Both the position numbers and the translations under genes were made by a program. Of a stretch of DNA of 17,653 nucleotides, positions 6,381-17,043 are shown piece by piece. Under the pieces are notes generated by a model. The model was not told the origin of the DNA. It ran no database searches and worked only from the letters and a program-made list of their open reading frames with translations. Each line of letters begins with the position of its first letter. Positions within the stretch are counted from its first letter, which is position 1. This DNA is from a virus (lineage: Duplodnaviria; Heunggongvirae; Uroviricota; Caudoviricetes), in IMG/VR virus record IMGVR_UViG_2526164631_000015, positions 1 to 17,653 of that record; one strand, written 5' to 3'.

Positions 6381-6420
6381 TCCTCACCTCGCAAAAACTC
6401 TCACCTCACAATCACAACAA

Positions 6421-6526
6421 AACCGGTCATGTCCGGTTTACATGTCTGTTTTTTGTTCATGTCCGGTTCACAGAAGACCTGTTTTTATATTTTTCATATA
6501 GTTAACTTGAAGAGAAACCGGACATG
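6421..6526. repeat. cosB-like terminase-binding repeats: CATGTCCGGTT at 6428-6438 and 6458-6468 (direct) and 6516-6526 (inverted), plus a partial copy at 6441-6448
   Basis: Repeats read directly from the sequence, located between cosN and the small-terminase start, with one copy inverted as for lambda R3 versus R1/R2. Confidence 0.6.
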
Positions 6527-6563
6527 GATCCCGGAAAATTTTCATAAATAGCGAAAACCCGCG

Positions 6564-6575
6564 AGGTCGCCGCCC
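6564..6575. other. cos: cosN cohesive-end site; plus strand AGGTCGCCGCCC is the reverse complement of the lambda 12-nt cohesive end GGGCGGCGACCT
   Basis: Plus strand 6529-6575 (CCGGAAAATTTTCATAAATAGCGAAAACCCGCGAGGTCGCCGCCC) is the reverse complement of the lambda left end as I recall it. The flanking 6576-6790 resembles the lambda right end (cosQ side). Confidence 0.8.
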
Positions 6576-7086
6576 CGTAGCCTGCCGGATCGCCGGAAAG
6601 GACCCAATAAAATGATAATAATTATCATTTATATAAATACCATCACACATCCCACGTACACCATAAAACCACGACAAATAATCAATTTTGTCCAAGTCAT
6701 GCATTAATTGATCTGTGTCAACTTAACGTAAAGACATCTTAAGACAATACAAATCAGCAGCACTGAACACGGAAAAACACAATGTCATCAAAAAATAAAG
6801 CTTCCCAAACCAGATGATTAATCAAATCCATATTGCCCTTGAACGTAAGGGATCGGGTAATTTTTCGGCATGGGTTATTGAAGCCTGCAGGAGAAGGCTG
6901 GCAACAAATGCAAAGCACCTGCGCCCGGCCAGCATGAAAAATAACGAGAAATGAACGTTCGGTTACAGGAACCGGTAGCTACTGTCTTCTAACAATATTT
7001 CATCTTCATATCCGGCGAAACAAGACTTTACCCTGCAGGGATGTACTGAATAGCAACAGAGTGATAATTAACTTCTGATAAAATAA

Positions 7087-7413
7087 TCAGGGTGCTGAAG
7101 GACTAAAGATAAATGTTTTCTTCACGCCTTTACGCGGCTTGTCCTTCTCAAATCGCCATTTTGCCATCGCCTTTACAACCTGCTCATCAAACAGATGGTG
7201 CGGCTCTGAACGGATAAACTCAATTCGGGTGACAGTACCATCAGCACCAATATCAAACTTCACATCAACCCGTCCCTTTATATAATTTGCCGCGGCATAG
7301 GCCGGATATTGTGGTAATGCCTTAACCAACTGTCGAGGCATATCTGTTTTATGTTGCGTACAGCCCATAACCAAAGAAGACAACAAAATAATTAACGGAA
7401 GATTTCTTTTCAT
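7087..7413 (-). CDS. Lipoprotein with a TonB C-terminal-like domain (moron, function unknown)
   Basis: Signal peptide plus lipobox (MKRNLPLIILLSSLVMGC). Mature region PQYPAYAAANYIKGRVDVKFDIGADGTVTRIEFIRSEPHHLFDEQVVKAMAKWRFEKDKP aligns with the E. coli TonB C-terminal domain ([60 protein letters not shown]). Start taken at ATG 7411-7413; an in-frame ATG at 7426-7428 is the alternative. Confidence 0.75.
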   Translation of the reverse strand: MKRNLPLIILLSSLVMGCTQHKTDMPRQLVKALPQYPAYAAANYIKGRVDVKFDIGADGTVTRIEFIRSEPHHLFDEQVVKAMAKWRFEKDKPRKGVKKTFIFSPSAP

Positions 7414-7433
7414 TTTTATTCCCGGCATAGATA

Positions 7434-7450
7434 AGAATAAGTCTTATTCT
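7434..7450. promoter_or_regulatory. AT-rich dyad AGAATAAG-T-CTTATTCT just upstream of the TonB-C lipoprotein start, overlapping a candidate -10 (TAGAAT); Fur-box-like operator candidate
   Basis: Palindrome read directly from the sequence. Its resemblance to Fur-box hexamers (GATAAT-type) and the promoter assignment are inference. Confidence 0.35.
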
Positions 7451-8088
7451 AACAATGCAGCCCTGTCGGTCATCAATCCTCTGCTTAATGGCAATGACAA
7501 TTATCCGACTTAAATCACAAATCAGACACATGACATAACAGAGCTTGCGAGGTAACACATCGTCCGGTTTCTTCCACCATCGCACCGGACCAGCGACCAT
7601 GAGGGGACAACGCCGCGCTCCGTTAACACGGTAAACCCCGGTGTGTATCGTTTTTGATTATCCCCGCACACTCGCGCAGAGGAGTCTCCCTCTCGGGCTG
7701 TGGTCTCTGTTGATGCGGGAATACGGCGACGATACAGTGCATAGTTATGTCAGGCTAAAATGCCTTTATCAAATCTGGGTAACGCAATCTGCCATTGTTG
7801 GCTCCGGTTGTGGTGATGATGTCAAGCAAGCCCATCTTGACTATCTCAACTAGTCGATTCATGACATATGTCACATTTATACCAACCAGATCATTGCGTT
7901 GAGTTTACAACTCAATAATTCTTGGTTGGACGTCAAGTTTTGACGGTATTCGGGTGGCAGTTGATAGCAATCTTGGAACCGTCCACCTAATAGCTGCTTG
8001 TGTGGCGTTTAAATTGTGGAGTGCTCGCAACAGAACTTTTCTTTCTTGTTTGCGAGCGATGTTTAGCAACTTTTAAGAGAGTTAAGTC

Positions 8089-8319
8089 ATGGAGTTTTTG
8101 AAAGAGCATCATTTGCCTTCAATAATTTTTGGAATTTTTTCCGCCATTTTTTGGATTATTTCATGTTTTGCATCTTCCAAAGAACACCCACCAAAAACGG
8201 AACAAGGCAGTTTCTCATCACTGGGTTGTTTTAAAGCCATTGAAATACAAAGTAAATGGAATAAACGGGCTGCTTTTTGCGCAGCGTTAGCTGTTCTTGC
8301 TCAAGTATTTAGCTTTTAG
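8089..8319 (+). CDS. Small hydrophobic/membrane protein, 76 aa, function unknown (moron on the strand opposite the late genes)
   Basis: ATG start with a GAGAG motif upstream. Hydrophobic segments (LPSIIFGIFSAIFWIISCFA; AAFCAALAVLAQVFSF). AT-rich context. Followed 18 nt downstream by an intrinsic terminator. Confidence 0.5.
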   Translation: MEFLKEHHLPSIIFGIFSAIFWIISCFASSKEHPPKTEQGSFSSLGCFKAIEIQSKWNKRAAFCAALAVLAQVFSF

Positions 8320-9866: not shown

Positions 9867-11732
9867 TTATGCTGCCGGTGCATTTATCTCCAGCACCAGA
9901 CTTTCTATCTCAACACCATACGCTGCATTTTTGGTAATATCCGTCAGCGTCAGCGCATTCAGCCCCAGTGTCAGACTGTCTTTTATGACCTGGAATGCCG
10001 GGCCAGCCACTCCATTCAGTTTCGGAGTAACCGTGGCACTGCCGGCGGTGAACACCAGTTCCAGCGTCTGCCAGTCATTACTGTAATTCCCGAACTCGCC
10101 CAACTTTGTGTTTCCTGCTTTCTTGTGATGCATCAGATTCAGTTTGCCGTCTGTGGTCTGGGTGAAGAACGACATCAGGAACGGGTTACCAGTCCCGGTC
10201 ATCGCCACGACGTCAGGTAACGCTACATCGGTATACAGATAAATTCCCAGGCCGAACTGGTTGTTGGTCAGTGCGCCTGACAGTCGAAACTTACAGCTCA
10301 GTCTGCCACCCCGTGTCAGCAGGGAGACTGCGTCATCCACCGGATGCATCAGGGACCAGGTTTTATTGCTCTGCTTGGCGATCTTAAATACACCACCCGA
10401 CAACTGAATTCCGCCGTCCTTAATGGTCCAGCCCTGCGCAGCAGCCTCTCCGGCTGTCGGCAACAGGGAGATTGTGCGTACGGATGCATCTTCAGACGGC
10501 CCCGATGGCGTGTTGCCGCCGGGCGAGGGTTTGATTTCCGGTGCCTTACCACTGATGAAAGCTGAGGTGCGCCCGGCTGCGTTCAGAATAGCGGTTGCCA
10601 TACGATCCGGAATAATGCTCCTGCGCGCCCATGAACTGAAATGTGTCGGGCGGTTTGATGATACCTGGTTTCCATTCGTTCTCGATGCCGCACCGTAATA
10701 TCCTGATGCCGGAATATCCGGATCTTCTGCCGGTGCGTTAGTGGCGGTATTGACGCCGTTACCGTCTGTCATGAAGGGCACAAAATAAACGCCCTCACTC
10801 TCCCTGTTTTTATACCCGCCGTACACGGTGTCGTACTGGGTAGCGTATGTATTTTTCCAGTAATACGTCGTGTCACCACAAATCCACGGCACATTTACAG
10901 CACTGCCACCATGACACTGCGCGTTAAACACAGTGAGGTCAGCACGAAACTGCTTCAGCATGGCTGTAAACAGCGCAGGTTGCTGTGCGTAGGTGGCGGC
11001 GCTCATGTCAAACTCTCCCTGCATCCAGCACACCGCCAGCAACACATTTTTCGGGTTCTTCTGTAATGCAGCTTTAGTGCGCGCAATCAGGTCCTGATAT
11101 AACGGTTTACCCACCCCCCAGCGCGCCGAATCCTGGCTGGCCCCCGCGTCCGCACTGAATGTCCCCTCCGCGCCCTGGGTGAATGCCGAACCACCACGAC
11201 AGCATGGTACCAGCAGGATCCCCGCGTTATTCGGGATATACGGGAGCAGTTTTTTGGCAATATGTAAGCCCTGGCCGACACAGCCGTACTGCCCTTTGCT
11301 CAGGTCTGCCTTCGGATGATTCAGCGTACTCATATCCTGCACATCATGCAGACAGTGGTCAGCCGGGATGATGTCGTTATACGTACAACTCTCTCCACCC
11401 GGAGTTACCGTGCTGCGGCGCGCCAGCTGTTTAATGCGCGGATCCGGAGCATCGTAAGAATCCGGTAACGGAAGCCCTTCACCGTAGGCCATGCCGTTGG
11501 ACTGTCCGGCAAGCACAACCACGTAGAACCAGTCCGGCTCAGTTGCACCACTGACGACCACATCACCTTCTGCTGCAATCGCCTGCATCAGGGTATAAGG
11601 GGTTATGGCCACCGGACTACCAAACGGCTGCCAGCCCTCTTTCAGTTTATGTGTCAGCTTTTCCGCAAGATCTGACGGCGACGCCGCCCTGACAACATCA
11701 TAGTGTTTAAATGCCATGGTTCTTTCCACCAT
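9867..11732 (-). CDS. nanS: Prophage sialate O-acetylesterase (NanS-p-like; SASA/SGNH esterase domain with C-terminal extension)
   Basis: 621-aa ORF with the catalytic-serine GQSN motif (VVLAGQSNGMAYG) typical of SASA-family sialate O-acetylesterases. Position between the tRNA/toxin locus and the lysis genes matches the nanS-p (yjhS-like) gene of Stx-type phages. Confidence 0.8.
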   Translation of the reverse strand: MVERTMAFKHYDVVRAASPSDLAEKLTHKLKEGWQPFGSPVAITPYTLMQAIAAEGDVVVSGATEPDWFYVVVLAGQSNGMAYGEGLPLPDSYDAPDPRIKQLARRSTVTPGGESCTYNDIIPADHCLHDVQDMSTLNHPKADLSKGQYGCVGQGLHIAKKLLPYIPNNAGILLVPCCRGGSAFTQGAEGTFSADAGASQDSARWGVGKPLYQDLIARTKAALQKNPKNVLLAVCWMQGEFDMSAATYAQQPALFTAMLKQFRADLTVFNAQCHGGSAVNVPWICGDTTYYWKNTYATQYDTVYGGYKNRESEGVYFVPFMTDGNGVNTATNAPAEDPDIPASGYYGAASRTNGNQVSSNRPTHFSSWARRSIIPDRMATAILNAAGRTSAFISGKAPEIKPSPGGNTPSGPSEDASVRTISLLPTAGEAAAQGWTIKDGGIQLSGGVFKIAKQSNKTWSLMHPVDDAVSLLTRGGRLSCKFRLSGALTNNQFGLGIYLYTDVALPDVVAMTGTGNPFLMSFFTQTTDGKLNLMHHKKAGNTKLGEFGNYSNDWQTLELVFTAGSATVTPKLNGVAGPAFQVIKDSLTLGLNALTLTDITKNAAYGVEIESLVLEINAPAA

Positions 11733-11977
11733 CTGAAAAATAATTCTTTAAAATACCTGACATGTAATACAGAAAAAACACAAAACCATACCTTAAATAA
11801 AAACCTCATCATCAAGCAGATATGCATGGATAAACTACAAGACGAGATATAAACCACCCTGCATTTAAATAAACAATAAACAACATCAGAAAAATAATTC
11901 TGCTCTATGGTTTACAATCAAAAATATCATTTATACTTTTCAGAACATCACCAGCAAGGCATAAACAAGGAAACTAA

Positions 11978-12313
11978 ATGAAGTGGATTGTGATTGATAC
12001 AGTTATCCAGCCATCATGCGGAATATCTTTTTCAGTCATATGGAGTAAAATAAAATTAATAATCTGGTATCAATCGGATGCTTTCTTACCTCCTGAAAGT
12101 ATATTTACACTGACTCACACAGGTATCATGCTCAATAACAAAGTGCTACCTGTAACCATTTACAACGTAGTACCATTCAATAAAACATTCTGGAATTTAA
12201 TCAAAAACAGCCAGGAATGCCCTACAAATACAGATAACGTATTGAATGAATGCTTTAATAACCGTTGCACTCTGCAAATATGTCCTTATGGGCTAAAACA
12301 ACAAAGTCCATAA
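11978..12313 (+). CDS. Hypothetical protein, 111 aa, Cys-rich C-terminus; cargo gene antisense to the late operon
   Basis: ATG preceded by a strong RBS (AAGGAAACTAAATG). Candidate sigma70 promoter upstream (TTTACA ... TATACT around 11912-11940). About 33% GC. No recognisable family by eye. Confidence 0.45.
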
Positions 12314-12332
12314 GGAGTTTACTCACATCTGA

Positions 12333-12369
12333 CAAAATCAATATAAACAGCCCCTCCGGAGAGGGGCTG
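12333..12369 (-). terminator. Intrinsic-terminator-like hairpin on the minus strand (stem CAGCCCCTC / GAGGGGCTG, loop CGGA, then TTTATATTGATTTTG on the minus strand)
   Basis: GC-rich 9-bp stem with a T-rich tract on the minus strand only. Lies within the cargo block and adjacent to the 3' end of the plus-strand 111-aa ORF. Confidence 0.5.
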
Positions 12370-12745
12370 GAGAGTGGCGCTATGTGCCATTGCATGGTGC
12401 CGGGTGCCTCCCGGTGAATTCAGTACCAGCACCTGAATCCGCGATTATCCCATATACCTACTCGCTGATTGCCCCTCCGCACAGGTGGATTCACCATGCC
12501 AGTTTCTTTTAACAAACTCCCCGCAAACCAGACAACAGTCAACCGCCTGAATTGTGAAGTATTTAAAAATTTCTCCGGCTAACAGTCTGGCGTTTTCTTT
12601 TTCAGCAACGGGAAAGCAACAACCACCACACCCGCCACCAGTACACAGTCAGCCAGCACTGACATTATCCGGCTGCTGCAATGCCATTCACAAAAACAGT
12701 AAGCAATCACTTTTTACCGTAACAGGTGATAATCCAGATATGTAT

Positions 12746-13072
12746 CTACCCCAGATGAGTAATCCGAAGTTCATCCATACCACAGGTCCTGGCTATTCTG
12801 TTGTACTCCTGAACAAGAGCAAATAATTCTGAATTAGCAACCATGAACTCATCGCAAACCCTCTGTATAGCATCACTATTCAGAATAATAACGTCTCTTC
12901 CCAAAAGACGATCAGGAGTACAGAACAAAACTGTCAAACGGCTGAAGGCCTTTGCTCGTGCTGCATTGACTATATCAATACGCTGCCTAAGGATGAAACA
13001 CCCCGACGCCTCATCAATATTCACTCTACCCACACCATATGAATGATAAATATTTAATACTGAAAAAACCAT
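12746..13072 (-). CDS. Hypothetical protein (about 108 aa from ATG 13070-13072; ORF track starts at TTG 13099); coding status uncertain
   Basis: Open frame in the cargo block with no convincing RBS and no recognisable motifs. Confidence 0.25.
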   Translation of the reverse strand: MVFSVLNIYHSYGVGRVNIDEASGCFILRQRIDIVNAARAKAFSRLTVLFCTPDRLLGRDVIILNSDAIQRVCDEFMVANSELFALVQEYNRIARTCGMDELRITHLG

Positions 13073-13209
13073 TAGACCGTATAACAAACACTCAATCAAT
13101 ACTTAACAGAACTTTTATTTTTGACAAACATATAATATTTTCAACAATATACTGAGCCAGGTATATTCCAGTATAAGGCTCTGCCGGAAGAAATCTGGAA
13201 GAATGAATA

Positions 13210-13286
13210 TGGCGCGTTGTACTGGATTCGAACCAGTGACCGATTGCTTAGAAGGCAATTGCTCTGTCCGGCTGAGCTAACAACGC
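13210..13286 (-). tRNA. tRNA-Arg (anticodon UCU)
   Basis: Minus-strand sequence GCGTTGTTAGCTCAGCCGGACAGAGCAATTGCCTTCTAAGCAATCGGTCACTGGTTCGAATCCAGTACAACGCGCCA folds as a canonical cloverleaf: 7-bp acceptor, GCTC/GAGC D-stem, anticodon loop CTTCTAA, T-loop TTCGAAT, encoded CCA. Confidence 0.85.
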
Positions 13287-13298
13287 ATAATGCAGATA

Positions 13299-13375
13299 AT
13301 GGATTGCCATCGGGGACCCGGGCCCCACACAGCCAGTTTCGAAAGCTGACGCTCTCTGCCGATGAGCTAATGGCG
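13299..13375 (-). tRNA. tRNA-like element, probably degenerate tRNA-Arg (UCG-like anticodon); non-canonical T-loop and two acceptor-stem mismatches
   Basis: Minus-strand sequence CCGCCATTAGCTCATCGGCAGAGAGCGTCAGCTTTCGAAACTGGCTGTGTGGGGCCCGGGTCCCCGATGGCAATCCA has TA at positions 8-9, a GCTC/GAGC D-stem, an anticodon loop TTTCGAA and a terminal CCA. Acceptor pairs 1-72 and 2-71 are C-A mismatches and the T-loop is CCCGGGT rather than TTCRANT. Confidence 0.4.
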
Positions 13376-13383
13376 GTATGTGA

Positions 13384-13459
13384 TGGTGGCCCTTGCTGGA
13401 TTTGAACCAGCGACCTGGCGATTATGAGTCGCTCGCTCTCACCACTGAGCTAAAGGGCC
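13384..13459 (-). tRNA. tRNA with CAU anticodon, ileX/ileZ-like (tRNA-Ile2, lysidine type) or Met
   Basis: Minus-strand sequence GGCCCTTTAGCTCAGTGGTGAGAGCGAGCGACTCATAATCGCCAGGTCGCTGGTTCAAATCCAGCAAGGGCCACCA is a canonical cloverleaf. The anticodon stem-loop GCGACTCATAATCGC matches E. coli ileX as recalled. Confidence 0.85.
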
Positions 13460-13508
13460 GGTAGCAGAATAATAATGGTGCGTAATTAATTCTGCAATCC
13501 CATCCGTT

Positions 13509-14558
13509 TCAAACGATTAAATCCTGAACTTCCCTGACTGTCTGTTCAAAACGTCCTGTCTCCAGCTCAACACCAATCGCACAACGCCCCAGTGCCATCG
13601 CCGCTTTTACCGTTGAACCTGAACCCATAAAAAAATCTGCAACCAGGTCTCCCGGACGACTGCTCGCGTTGATTATCTGCTGCAGCATTTCTGCCGGTTT
13701 TTCGCACGGATGTTTCCCTGGATAGTACTGCACCGGTTTATGCGTCCAGACATCGGTGTACGGAACCTGCGCCGTCACACCGAAATACCGCCGCAAATTT
13801 TTATATTCACTCAGCAGTTCCGTATACTGCCGGTTCAGCTCACTGTATGTGCTGACCAGCTGGTGGTGTGGCTTTTCCAGTTCCCCGCGCTGATGTTTTT
13901 CTGCCGCAACACGCGCAAACAACGCCTGCAATTTGTTGTAATTACCCTCGTTCGGTAACTGCCACTGACTGGTACCAAACCAGTGCGAAGCCATGTTTTT
14001 CTTTCCGGTGGCTTCCGCTATCTGTTTTGACGTTATTCCCAGTGATTTACGCGCATCACGAAAGTAAGAAATCAGCGGGGCCATGACGTGCTGTTTTAGC
14101 TCGCGCCCCTGTGCCACATAGCCATCATCTTTCGGGCGATACGGTCCCTGATAATGTTCTGCAAACAGAATGCGCTCTGTTGCCGGAAAATACGCCCGCA
14201 GACTTTCCTTATTGCACCCGTTCCAGCGTCCGGACGGCTTCGCCCAGATAATGTGGTTCAGCACATTAAAGCGCTCACGCATCATGATTTCGGTGTCAGA
14301 TGCCAGGCGATGACCACAGAACAGGTAAAGACTTCCGGCAGGCTTCAGTACCCGCCAGAACTGCGCCAGACACTGGTCCAGCCATTTCAGGTAATCATCG
14401 TCGCCCTCCCACTGGTTATCCCAGCCCTCGGGCTTCACTTTAAAGTATGGCGGGTCTGTGACTATCAGATCGACAGAGTTTTCCGGTAAGGTCTGGATAA
14501 ATTCCAGGCAATCAGCGTTGATTAACTCACAACTGGATATTTTTACAGTATTAATCAT
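13509..14558 (-). CDS. DNA methyltransferase, beta-class amino-MTase (N6-adenine or N4-cytosine); orphan, no cognate endonuclease in the window
   Basis: 349-aa ORF with motif IV DPPY near the N-terminus (LIVTDPPYF) and motif I FxGxG near the C-terminus (DFFMGSGSTV), the circularly permuted order of beta-class MTases. Confidence 0.85.
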   Translation of the reverse strand: MINTVKISSCELINADCLEFIQTLPENSVDLIVTDPPYFKVKPEGWDNQWEGDDDYLKWLDQCLAQFWRVLKPAGSLYLFCGHRLASDTEIMMRERFNVLNHIIWAKPSGRWNGCNKESLRAYFPATERILFAEHYQGPYRPKDDGYVAQGRELKQHVMAPLISYFRDARKSLGITSKQIAEATGKKNMASHWFGTSQWQLPNEGNYNKLQALFARVAAEKHQRGELEKPHHQLVSTYSELNRQYTELLSEYKNLRRYFGVTAQVPYTDVWTHKPVQYYPGKHPCEKPAEMLQQIINASSRPGDLVADFFMGSGSTVKAAMALGRCAIGVELETGRFEQTVREVQDLIV

Positions 14559-14708
14559 AGATCAATAAGCACTTCTCTGATAGGCTCATACCGCTTTTGC
14601 GCAAAGCAGATGGGCCTGAGGTTTGCTTGTGACCCCAACGCATGAGCAGATGGCTGGCAGGTGCCGCTAACACCCACCAGCCGCCCATTACCACAAATTA
14701 AAAAGCCT

Positions 14709-14918
14709 TCACTGCGGAAGGCGTCTGTAACAACCGAACTGATAATCTGCCAGACCCGCCATAACAAGCTGGGTCAGTATTAACTGGCAGCGTTCGCGTG
14801 AAAGGTAAGTATTCTGCGCAATTTCCCCGACGGTCGCCGGTTCGGTGACGCTTAATTCATTAAACACCACTCTGGCGGTTTCGGTCATATCCTGCTGTTT
14901 TAGCATGCCTTTTTCCAT
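14709..14918 (-). CDS. Small hypothetical protein (about 65-70 aa); start uncertain (ORF track extends to 15029)
   Basis: Open frame immediately downstream of the tR'-like terminator. Internal ATGs at 14916-14918 and 14904-14906 carry weak to moderate RBS (AAAGG); the 15029 ATG abuts the terminator T-tract with no RBS. Confidence 0.35.
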   Translation of the reverse strand: MEKGMLKQQDMTETARVVFNELSVTEPATVGEIAQNTYLSRERCQLILTQLVMAGLADYQFGCYRRLPQ

Positions 14919-15029
14919 TTTCCGGTTAACGTGACATACCAATAACTCTTGTCGAAAAAGCCAGCAAGTTGAAAGACCGGTATTAGCAACCACCAGCGCG
15001 TTTAACGCCCCGTGCCGTTTTTCAGTCAT

Positions 15030-15051
15030 AAAAAAACCCGCAAAAAGCGGG
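15030..15051 (-). terminator. Intrinsic terminator on the minus strand about 80 bp downstream of the Q-like gene (tR'-like)
   Basis: Minus-strand RNA GCCCGC-UUUUU-GCGGG followed by U7. The position mirrors the lambdoid Q-pR'-tR' arrangement. Confidence 0.6.
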
Positions 15052-15130
15052 CTCTTTCAAATGTCCATGTCTGCTATTCGCCTCGCGGTACAGCTTTGCT
15101 AAGCTTACCGGAATTGAAGCAGTTTTTACG

Positions 15131-15697
15131 TCAAAAAGCAATAACTTTTTTCTCTATACCAAAAGCCATAACCATTGGTTTGTACAAAATAAATTCTGCC
15201 ACCTTTAGCCAATGCTCAATGCGTCTTTCACAGGTTCTTAAACTCCATTCCGGATGTGCATCATTCAGCAGTTCAGCCATTTTGCGCTTAGTCATCCCCC
15301 GCCCCACATAACGCTGACTCAGAACATTGAGCAGCCCGGGATAACCTGCCAGTACTTCACCAATAACCCTGTCGATTATTAACGCCTCTGAATCGGTACA
15401 ATGTGCCAGCCAGCTTTTTTGATTGCCGTTGATCATATCCCGCAAAAAAGCCTCAAGTTCAGGTTTGTCCAGACCCGCTTTTTTCATCCTCCGGAGCGCC
15501 TCGTTAATTGCCGTTTTTGTCAGCTTTTTAGAGGTCAGTAATTGGTTGAACATATTTCCCGTCTTACCGTCGCCAATATACGACCAACGCCCCCACATAC
15601 GCAGTTTCCCCTGGATCCAGACACTTTCCAGCGTTTTCAGGCGTAAATGCTCACCGCTTTTGCCTGTAATTTCCGGGTATATCATATTTATGCTCAC
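15131..15697 (-). CDS. Putative late-gene antiterminator (Q-like), assigned mainly by synteny
   Basis: 188-aa ORF immediately downstream of rusA and upstream of a short terminated leader, as for lambdoid Q genes. Contains a W-G-x-W motif region (RMWGRWS) reminiscent of some Q families. Start may be GTG 15695-15697 or ATG 15683-15685. Confidence 0.5.
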   Translation of the reverse strand: MSINMIYPEITGKSGEHLRLKTLESVWIQGKLRMWGRWSYIGDGKTGNMFNQLLTSKKLTKTAINEALRRMKKAGLDKPELEAFLRDMINGNQKSWLAHCTDSEALIIDRVIGEVLAGYPGLLNVLSQRYVGRGMTKRKMAELLNDAHPEWSLRTCERRIEHWLKVAEFILYKPMVMAFGIEKKVIAF

Positions 15698-16059
15698 TCA
15701 CTTTCAATTTTGTAAATCTTCACGCCCAGCCGCCCACCAGAAACGAGCTGACCGCGCACAATATTGATTTCATCAAACTGCTCGTCGTCTATAAGTAGTC
15801 CGGCATGCGTAAGCGCATCCAGTGGTGCCTTCAGGATATTGTCCAGGTCGCGGCGGCGCTTATCCGGTGGCTCTGCAATAATCTTTATCGCCAGCCTTCC
15901 GGACAGGTTTAATTTCAGCCACTGCTGGCGAACAATAAGCGCCACATCACGGCGATAACGCTCACCGGCTTTTGACACAAAATATGTGCTGCCACGACGT
16001 CGCCAGTAAGTGTTCACCGTCGGCGGGTAAGGCAAAACAAATTCTATGCGTTCAGTCAT
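15694..16059 (-). CDS. rusA: Holliday junction resolvase RusA (crossover junction endodeoxyribonuclease)
   Basis: 121-aa ORF. LPYPPTVNTYWRRRG...AGERYRRDV...PPDKRRRDLDNILKAPLDALTHAGLLIDDEQ aligns with E. coli RusA (LPWPPSNNRYYR...[30 protein letters not shown]). Confidence 0.9.
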   Translation of the reverse strand: MTERIEFVLPYPPTVNTYWRRRGSTYFVSKAGERYRRDVALIVRQQWLKLNLSGRLAIKIIAEPPDKRRRDLDNILKAPLDALTHAGLLIDDEQFDEINIVRGQLVSGGRLGVKIYKIESE

Positions 16060-17043
16060 TCATGCTTTCCACTTCAGGACACCCGAATTTCTCGCGTGCA
16101 TTAAAAAACGAATCAGCAACAACAGCTGGCTGCCGTGTTTTTCTTCAAAATCTTTTACCCCGGCGTGTAGTTCGCTATGACATTTACGGCACAGCGGAAT
16201 AACAAACAAATCATCAGCCTTTGTTCCCATCCCTCCCAGTCCATGACCAATGATGTGATGCGGATCATCTGCCTGATTACCGCACGTCATGCATTTCTGC
16301 GTTTTTACCCAGCGCGTGTATACAGGCATCTCTTCCCGTCGTGGTTTCTGGCGCTGGAGATACTGAGCCGGTGACTCCGGATCAACGGCAATGCTTACCA
16401 CCGTCTTTTCCTGTGGCGGGTTTTGCTGGTGGGCGTGAGGCAGTAGCGCAATATTTTTTGTGCGCTGCTTCAGCATGCTGGTGGCGGTCTGCTCTCCCGG
16501 CACGATGTCGCTCTCGCGGTATACTGAGCGAATTTTTTCCGCGCGTAATCCCAGTGAACGACGTAACACCGTCTCCGGTAGTGCGTCCGCTACGTTATTT
16601 ATGGTTGCCCACCAGGATAATTCAGCCAGCGATAATTCCCGCTCCTGCGTGCCATTCATTGCGTGGCGGATGACATCAATCATCCATGCTGACAGGTTTT
16701 GGTGAGCAAGCTGCCCGAGTGATTCGGAAGTCTGGTTACGCAGCTGGTTGTCGCAGTGCCAGCACAACACCATCGCGCCGGTACCGTAACGATGTATGAC
16801 GGTTTCACTGTGATGGTAGTCACCATGAGGCCACTGGCAGGATTTAATGTGGCGTAACAGCCAGTCAGACAATGCACCAGCACCACCAGCAGCACGAATC
16901 ACCCGCTCATCGCTGAAAAATGGCAGTAATGATTTATCCTCCGCCAGCGGCTGGCGAACAGCAGGAACGACTCCGGACGGCAGACCGCGCATGCTTTTCG
17001 GTTCCGGCTCCACCAGAACTCGAGGGTTATGAAATACCTGCAT
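16060..17043 (-). CDS. Prophage nin-region protein with C-terminal Cys/His zinc-binding (HNH-like) motif; ydfU/DUF968-like
   Basis: C-terminus CMTCGNQADDPHHIIGHGLGGMGTKADDLFVIPLCRKCHSELH carries a CxxC...HH...CxxCH motif. Located between the hypothetical 90-aa ORF and rusA. Start chosen at ATG 17041-17043; the ORF track extends to 17187 through a low-complexity, GC-rich, Pro/Arg-rich stretch. Confidence 0.5.
   Translation of the reverse strand: MQVFHNPRVLVEPEPKSMRGLPSGVVPAVRQPLAEDKSLLPFFSDERVIRAAGGAGALSDWLLRHIKSCQWPHGDYHHSETVIHRYGTGAMVLCWHCDNQLRNQTSESLGQLAHQNLSAWMIDVIRHAMNGTQERELSLAELSWWATINNVADALPETVLRRSLGLRAEKIRSVYRESDIVPGEQTATSMLKQRTKNIALLPHAHQQNPPQEKTVVSIAVDPESPAQYLQRQKPRREEMPVYTRWVKTQKCMTCGNQADDPHHIIGHGLGGMGTKADDLFVIPLCRKCHSELHAGVKDFEEKHGSQLLLLIRFLMHARNSGVLKWKA

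Follow-up and report, generated by a model that had tools for sequence, protein, structure and literature searches.

The 111-residue gene on the plus strand at 11978-12313 of the window (the whole stretch of 17,653 nucleotides that was analysed) is iraL; it belongs to the IraM/IraL/RssC family of anti-adaptors and is carried by a prophage. The gene is already known and not new: locus c1429 of uropathogenic E. coli CFT073, formerly ycgW, was named iraL and characterised by Hryckowian et al. (mBio 2014, PMC4045071). The window itself is the late region of a lambdoid prophage. [quoted passage not shown]

According to the mechanism considered most likely, which is the published one, a sigma-70 promoter that belongs to iraL would drive its transcription in the lysogen, with a start at 11945. 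The PmrD-like beta-barrel of the product (residues 1-78) would then bind the response-regulator-like adaptor RssB and cover its RpoS-binding face, so that RpoS (sigma-S) would not be delivered to ClpXP. As a consequence, RpoS would be longer-lived and build up in growing cells, and the general stress response would be pre-armed. The gene is a clean example of a lysogenic conversion that alters host regulation instead of adding a toxin, and this RpoS-raising prophage cassette is present in about a quarter of the complete E. coli genomes (1446 of 5426).

Identity and reading frame

The initial annotation, made from the DNA letters, described a plus-strand ORF of 111 codons with a near-consensus ribosome-binding site and a cluster of cysteines at the C-terminal end of its product. 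All three are in place. The ORF begins with an ATG at 11978 and ends with a stop codon at 12311-12313, the Shine-Dalgarno sequence AAGGA is found at 11967-11971, six bases 5' of the ATG, and four of the five cysteines of the protein (C81, C92, C97 and C102; the fifth is C14) span 22 residues. The gene and the elements that belong to it are as follows.

11718..12390, plus strand: iraL cassette (moron) with promoter, CDS and hairpin; 673 bp, AT-rich
11911..11916, plus strand: -35 hexamer TTTACA, 5/6 positions of TTGACA; identical in CFT073 and E2348/69
11932..11937, plus strand: -10 hexamer TATACT, 5/6 positions of TATAAT; identical in CFT073 and E2348/69
11945..11977, plus strand: transcription start (11945) and 33-nt leader, which match the published 5'-RACE result; contains the AAGGA at 11967-11971
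11978..12313, plus strand: iraL CDS; 111 aa, RssB anti-adaptor
11978..12211, plus strand: predicted PmrD-like beta-barrel plus helix, the RssB-binding domain (residues 1-78), from phmmer and the AF2 model
12218..12292, plus strand: motif C81-P-x9-C92-x4-C97-x4-C102-P-Y-G (residues 81-105), from an alignment of 41 family members
12348..12369, minus strand: GC-rich hairpin with T-run, terminator-like; nine pairs, seven of them G-C, with the tail TTTATATTGA

The protein is identical at 111 of 111 residues to IraL of CFT073, which is encoded at 1343465-1343800 of that genome, and the two have the protein accession WP_000871291.1 in common. In a three-way alignment the CDS differs from that of CFT073 at two positions in 336 bp, both synonymous, and the wider region (window 11498-13498) is 96.5% identical. 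In the literature, iraL and iraM form non-overlapping groups, each of which is at least 95% identical internally (PMC4045071). The iraL group comprises genes with at least 95% identity to CFT073 iraL over the CDS (Hryckowian 2014) and with an upstream region that is at least 96% identical to that of CFT073 and includes the mapped start site. The protein encoded here is 100% identical, and the upstream region shows at least this identity and includes the mapped start site.

The NCBIfam model NF007393, 'anti-adapter protein IraM', matched with 162 bits against a curated cutoff of 121, and the match is full-length, with residues 1-110 aligned to positions 1-113 of the 114 in the profile. A match to phrog_4407 (annotated as function unknown) was found in PHROGs with E = 3e-73. 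The Pfam scan, carried out with a copy that holds PF11183.13, returned no family for IraL at E <= 1.

Conservation of the reading frame in related prophages had been named as a check on the gene. The iraL CDS was found with at least 90% nucleotide identity in the 1446 of 5426 complete E. coli genomes mentioned above, with up to three copies per genome, and all of the matches listed carry a gene annotation for it. This conservation, the annotation and the NF007393 score together indicate that the ORF is not a product of chance. The RefSeq product name for the same CDS is IraM in every genome record among the matches listed. Such naming masks that IraL and IraM are distinct: they are regulated differently, and different modes of RssB binding have been reported for them.

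Six of the 13 isoleucine codons of iraL are ATA, which is a rare codon in E. coli. It can be read by a CAU-anticodon tRNA once the anticodon is modified. The prophage encodes a CAU-anticodon tRNA (tRNA-Ile in RefSeq) about 1.1 kb from the ATA-using iraL, and a tRNA-Arg(UCU) adjoins it.

Promoter, cassette and prophage context

A sigma-70 promoter (TTTACA and TATACT) had been proposed upstream of the ORF. [quoted passage not shown] Since the RACE end falls at 11945, seven bases after TATACT, the proposed promoter is the real one. The spacer between the two hexamers is 15 bp, which is short and suboptimal. A generic promoter scan that required spacers of 16-18 bp did not list the iraL promoter, as 15 bp lies outside this range. 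Compared with CFT073, three SNPs are present in the promoter and leader: at 11917 (spacer), 11944 (-1) and 11975 (leader). A terminator scan found no canonical intrinsic terminator for the iraL direction.

Expression in the lysogen, which the initial annotation also assumed, is borne out by 5'-RACE, deletion and complementation experiments published for the identical protein (PMC4045071). It was also reported that iraL with 100 bp of upstream DNA increases RpoS in K-12 (PMC4045071). More IraL was observed in a fur mutant of CFT073 (PMC7157518), and a shift from 23 to 37 degrees C raised the iraL mRNA by 1.6 log2 (PMC12890032).

The RefSeq name and the common NCBIfam family could be taken to mean that the gene is an IraM in the strict functional sense, which is controlled by PhoP/PhoQ and stabilises RpoS in cells starved of magnesium. 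A direct repeat that resembles a PhoP box, TGTTTATTGTTTATTTA, would fit such a role. It lies on the minus strand at 11866-11882, 63-79 bp upstream of the iraL start site, has one mismatch to KGTTTA-N5-KGTTTA, and is also conserved in both CFT073 and E2348/69. No other site in the window has at most one mismatch to the PhoP box; however, 43 of 200 shuffles of the whole window and about 5% of local simulations also yield one by chance, and the repeat is regarded as no more than a lead. The comparison with IraM of K-12 (b1160) also speaks against this reading. The two proteins have the family NF007393 and the PmrD-like fold in common, they align without gaps over 107 residues, and all five cysteine positions match, but only 66 of these 107 residues (62%) are identical; the 58.9% given in the literature (PMC4045071) equals 66/112. 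The C-terminus of IraL is four residues longer than that of K-12 IraM. At the nucleotide level the identity is 71% and confined to the CDS. Because the similarity ends at the CDS borders, the promoter regions of iraL and iraM are unrelated. With 62% amino acid and 71% nucleotide identity, the gene falls outside the strict iraM group, which is defined by at least 95% identity to K-12 iraM and a common regulatory region. Moreover, IraM is induced by Mg2+ starvation (PMC10844676), whereas IraL works in unstressed log phase, and the literature separates the two groups (PMC4045071). That the regulatory regions are unrelated agrees with the finding that IraL and IraM act under different conditions. 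A strict IraM therefore seems unlikely.

K-12 iraM is located just beyond the annotated right end of e14, beside ycgX, which encodes a DUF1398 protein (6414-8108 of the K-12 locus). Another DUF1398 gene, ydfO, is also present in the iraL-carrying prophage of CFT073. These two observations suggest that K-12 iraM may lie in a prophage remnant too.

With the gene taken as iraL, the description of it as a self-contained unit holds, as it has its own sigma-70 promoter and its own ribosome-binding site. The GC content of 11718-12390 is 32%, against 51% in the whole window. CFT073 and phage vB_EcoS-640R1 carry the same cassette with at least 96% identity, as does E2348/69 over 11740-12520. Both flanks (window 11617-11717 and 12391-12566) are conserved in the Shigella phage 75/02 Stx as well; there they enclose only 260 bp, without the cassette, and this gap sits between stxB and the esterase gene. 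This indicates that iraL is a moron inserted in the post-stx gap. The characters of a moron found here are a promoter of its own, a flanking hairpin, a deviant GC content and presence or absence among phages, and the cassette would presumably be dispensable for lytic growth.

The hairpin at 12348-12369 lies just past the iraL stop. Its folding energy is -20.8 kcal/mol (z = -2.65), and it is identical in CFT073 and E2348/69. The T-run is found on the minus strand only, with none on the plus strand, in which iraL is read, and the hairpin thus faces transcription that arrives from the Q/tRNA side. In the absence of Q, it would probably halt transcription from the tRNA side before a collision with iraL and thereby insulate the gene in the lysogen.

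Morons of the stxAB type in lambdoid phages resemble iraL in several ways. They are self-contained cargo located between the Q/tRNA region and the esterase and lysis genes, their composition is unlike that of the flanks, and they are present or absent among otherwise similar phages. Expression of stxAB depends on late transcription. The orientation differs as well: stxAB is co-oriented with the late transcript (phage 75/02 Stx), whereas iraL is antisense to it, with a constitutive-type promoter of its own and expression in the lysogen.

Along its entire length, the window shares 98.8% identity with a prophage from E. coli O111:H2 strain 12A. The offset between the two sequences moves from 301 to 296 across the Q region (14906-16060). 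The main features around the cassette are listed below.

9867..11717, minus strand: SASA/DUF1737 carbohydrate esterase (NanS-p-like); Pfam DUF1737, SASA and DUF6645, and RefSeq
12384-12509, plus strand: 42-codon ORF; an incomplete pseudogene in RefSeq
12579-12665, minus strand: DUF3927 / 'TciB-like' remnant of 28 residues; only the last half of the profile is matched
13210-13286, minus strand: tRNA-Arg(UCU); ARAGORN and RefSeq of the matching prophage
13384-13459, minus strand: CAU-anticodon tRNA (tRNA-Ile in RefSeq); ARAGORN and RefSeq of the matching prophage
13509-14558, minus strand: N6/N4 DNA methyltransferase, 349 aa, between the Q-like gene and the tRNAs
14709-14906, minus strand: 65-residue ORF (phrog_331), the end of which is overlapped by a terminator-like hairpin at 14705-14722
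15134..15685, minus strand: Q-like antiterminator (DUF1133) that determines in which direction the late genes are transcribed; phrog_753 'anti-termination protein Q-like', E = 5e-81

The order on the minus strand is RusA, Q-like gene, 65-residue ORF, methyltransferase, tRNAs, DUF3927 remnant, esterase, holin, lysozyme, Rz and terminase. In Pfam, the Q-like gene matches DUF1133 (E = 3e-105) and Phage_antitermQ (E = 5e-8). The initial annotation had placed the ORF antisense to the late operon and at a hotspot for cargo genes, and the gene order agrees with both statements. The features named in this order are all on the minus strand, and iraL, which lies between the Q/tRNA region and the esterase, is among the few genes annotated on the plus strand of the window. 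As a plus-strand gene between the DUF3927 remnant and the esterase, it is antisense to the Q-dependent transcript. Seen in the late direction, both tRNAs are upstream of the cassette, and the esterase is the first late gene past it. The DUF3927 remnant and the 42-codon ORF look like debris that flanks the cassette.

The context of iraL in CFT073 is alike: tRNAs, DUF3927, a pseudo-ORF, the antisense iraL, a DUF1737 esterase and a holin. Two differences were found. The Q gene of the carrier prophage in CFT073 is an 822-bp 'antitermination protein', whereas that of the window is of the DUF1133 type, and the esterase is truncated in CFT073 but intact here. At least 80% of the iraL CDS was recovered in 1440 of the 1446 genomes. 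An 801-bp stretch comprising the gene and its two flanks is at least 80% retained in 1432 of all the genomes, and iraL therefore travels with its present context. Among deposited phage genomes, four carry iraL.

Two further observations concern the late region. The methyltransferase gene at 13509-14558 lies within the expected late transcription unit. The hairpin with a T-run at 14705-14722 on the minus strand, about 430 bp downstream of the Q-like gene, is a candidate for a tR'-type terminator of the late promoter.

Binding to RssB and the predicted fold

The binding of IraL to RssB was demonstrated with the CFT073 protein by a two-hybrid assay and by copurification (PMC4045071). Deletion of iraL lowered the log-phase level of RpoS in both CFT073 and Shigella sonnei, and the half-life of RpoS in CFT073 decreased from about 5 min to about 2.5 min upon deletion (PMC4045071). 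Judged from its sequence, the gene is expected to have the same RssB/RpoS function in the present strain as in CFT073.

Structure prediction had been suggested for the 111-residue protein. The AF2 model gives a PmrD-like barrel like that of IraM in 8TWD. A first run, with 16 close homologues, reached a pLDDT of 54.8 with the tail below 50, and it was replaced by a run with 41 diverse family members, for which the pLDDT was 84.8 and the block means over residues 1-80 were 88-97. The predicted structure superposes on 8twd_A (IraM 1-78 bound to RssB) with an rmsd of 1.3 A over 78 residues and a TM score of 0.90, and a phmmer comparison of residues 1-78 with the same chain gave E = 9e-32. The study of the IraM-RssB complex identified 14 RssB-contacting residues of IraM, in clusters I-III (PMC10844676). 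Ten of the 14 are identical in IraL, and the others are replaced by similar residues (T13S, L75I, H63N and I64V). It was reported that IraM touches both domains of RssB, whereas IraL touches the N-terminal one only (PMC4045071). For this reason, 8TWD may be an incomplete model for the details of how IraL binds. A resemblance of residues 9-47 to the Kti11/Dph3 zinc-binding proteins was attributed to chance, with phmmer E values of 0.26-0.88 and a location in the beta-barrel, not in the cysteine tail.

The next-best folds, with E values of 1e-3 to 3e-3, were those of PmrD (4HN7, 2JSO and 2RQX), the protein that protects phospho-PmrA. PmrD has a barrel and a helix like IraL (TM 0.71-0.76, target-normalised), and the two proteins are alike in their small size and in binding a receiver domain. 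It could thus be asked whether the gene product is a PmrD-like connector that acts also, or instead, on another response regulator, for example by shielding a phosphorylated receiver domain. In addition to the fold, members of the IraM/IraL family are tagged with PF11183.15 (PmrD), a precomputed label of the protein database, and IraM was found to increase the net phosphorylation of RssB, which is a PmrD-like property (PMC10844676). However, the sequence identity to PmrD is only about 15-21%, and the targets differ (PmrA for PmrD, RssB for IraL). The PmrD chains, of 81-88 residues, end after the helix and lack the four-cysteine tail of IraL. The PmrD model in the Pfam copy used, PF11183.13, matched neither IraL nor K-12 IraM in hmmscan, and it matched five of the 41 relatives weakly (best E = 0.003); the discrepancy in the PmrD label appears to be due to the difference between Pfam versions 13 and 15. 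RssB binding and the effect on RpoS were published for the identical protein (PMC4045071), and a connector to another response regulator is considered very improbable.

The identification as an RssB anti-adaptor also bears on the suggestion in the initial annotation that genes of this kind are often host-interaction, toxin or defence factors. The first part stands in a broad sense, as IraL rewires the RpoS stress response of the host. The other two do not stand for a known RssB anti-adaptor, and the defence reading was dropped as the PADLOC defence models returned no family for IraL at E <= 1. Given also that the predicted structure of residues 1-78 superposes on crystallised IraM, iraL is a moron for host physiology, neither a toxin gene nor a defence gene. 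Although an antisense, lysogen-expressed gene with four clustered cysteines, at a hotspot that holds Shiga toxin in related phages, might bring to mind a prophage toxin, an anti-phage defence factor or a secreted disulfide-knot peptide, these are effectively refuted by the identity of the product to a cytoplasmic RssB-binding protein (PMC4045071), together with the absence of a PADLOC match, the lack of an obvious N-terminal signal peptide by eye, and the cytoplasmic-type beta-barrel predicted for residues 1-78.

The four-cysteine tail

A word-indexed search for homologues reached Escherichia relatives only, whereas an exhaustive profile search reached other Enterobacteriaceae and gave 93 cluster representatives of the IraM/IraL family. 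Those representatives that were checked belong to Salmonella, Citrobacter, Enterobacter, Cronobacter, Intestinirhabdus and Dryocola, and where their sources give a name, it is IraM. Across 41 intact members, which are 20-76% identical to IraL, no columns are invariant other than W72, C81, C97, C102 and P103, and the C92 column is conserved to at least 90% in the same alignment. The tails of all 41 contain the pattern C-x(8-12)-C-x(3-5)-C-x4-C. IraL fits the family motif, C-x(8-12)-C-x(3-5)-C-x4-C-P, as C81-x10-C92-x4-C97-x4-C102-P103. In a cruder alignment of 56 sequences, the exceptions to the cysteine pattern appeared to be frameshifted or truncated. The invariant columns and the presence of the pattern in every tail place the four cysteines among the best-conserved positions of the family.

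The AF2 model is of low confidence in this part, with block-mean pLDDT values of only 55-71 for residues 81-111. In the structural study of IraM, residues 79-107 were dropped and described as prone to proteolysis, 'less conserved' and flexible by prediction, and the paper is silent on the cysteines (PMC10844676). The truncated IraM still formed a stable complex with RssB (PMC10844676), which indicates that the tail is dispensable for RssB binding. As the sole crystal structure, 8TWD, does not include residues 79-107, a candidate site in the tail would have been overlooked.

A profile of the cysteine tail found nothing significant among PDB sequences, where a CCCH zinc-finger protein appeared at E = 5 only. 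A search of 29 tails against Pfam gave nothing significant either; the best matches were to zf-CCCH with E = 1.5-2.2, each in a single tail. The CCCH-like spacing is therefore a mere resemblance. A literature search for IraM with zinc or cysteines returned no relevant paper in the collection covered.

Four invariant cysteines in a cytoplasmic protein usually form a metal site, and the tail of IraL may accordingly hold a metal. The initial annotation had raised a zinc-binding or disulfide knot for these cysteines. A tentative proposal, plausible though less likely than not, is that a Cys4 metal site (with zinc or iron-sulfur) or else a redox switch based on thiols is made up of C81, C92, C97 and C102 and controls the stability or activity of the anti-adaptors of the IraL/IraM family. 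RsrA and Hsp33 are zinc-thiolate switches with which such a site could be compared. If the proposal is true, this branch of RpoS control would have a built-in metal or oxidative-stress input, and the prophage copy of iraL would bring that input into its host. The tail, which is among the best-conserved parts of the family and yet was discarded in the structural study, is thus a modest lead. The remaining cysteine of IraL, C14, is not conserved in the family, and threonine is the commonest residue at its position.
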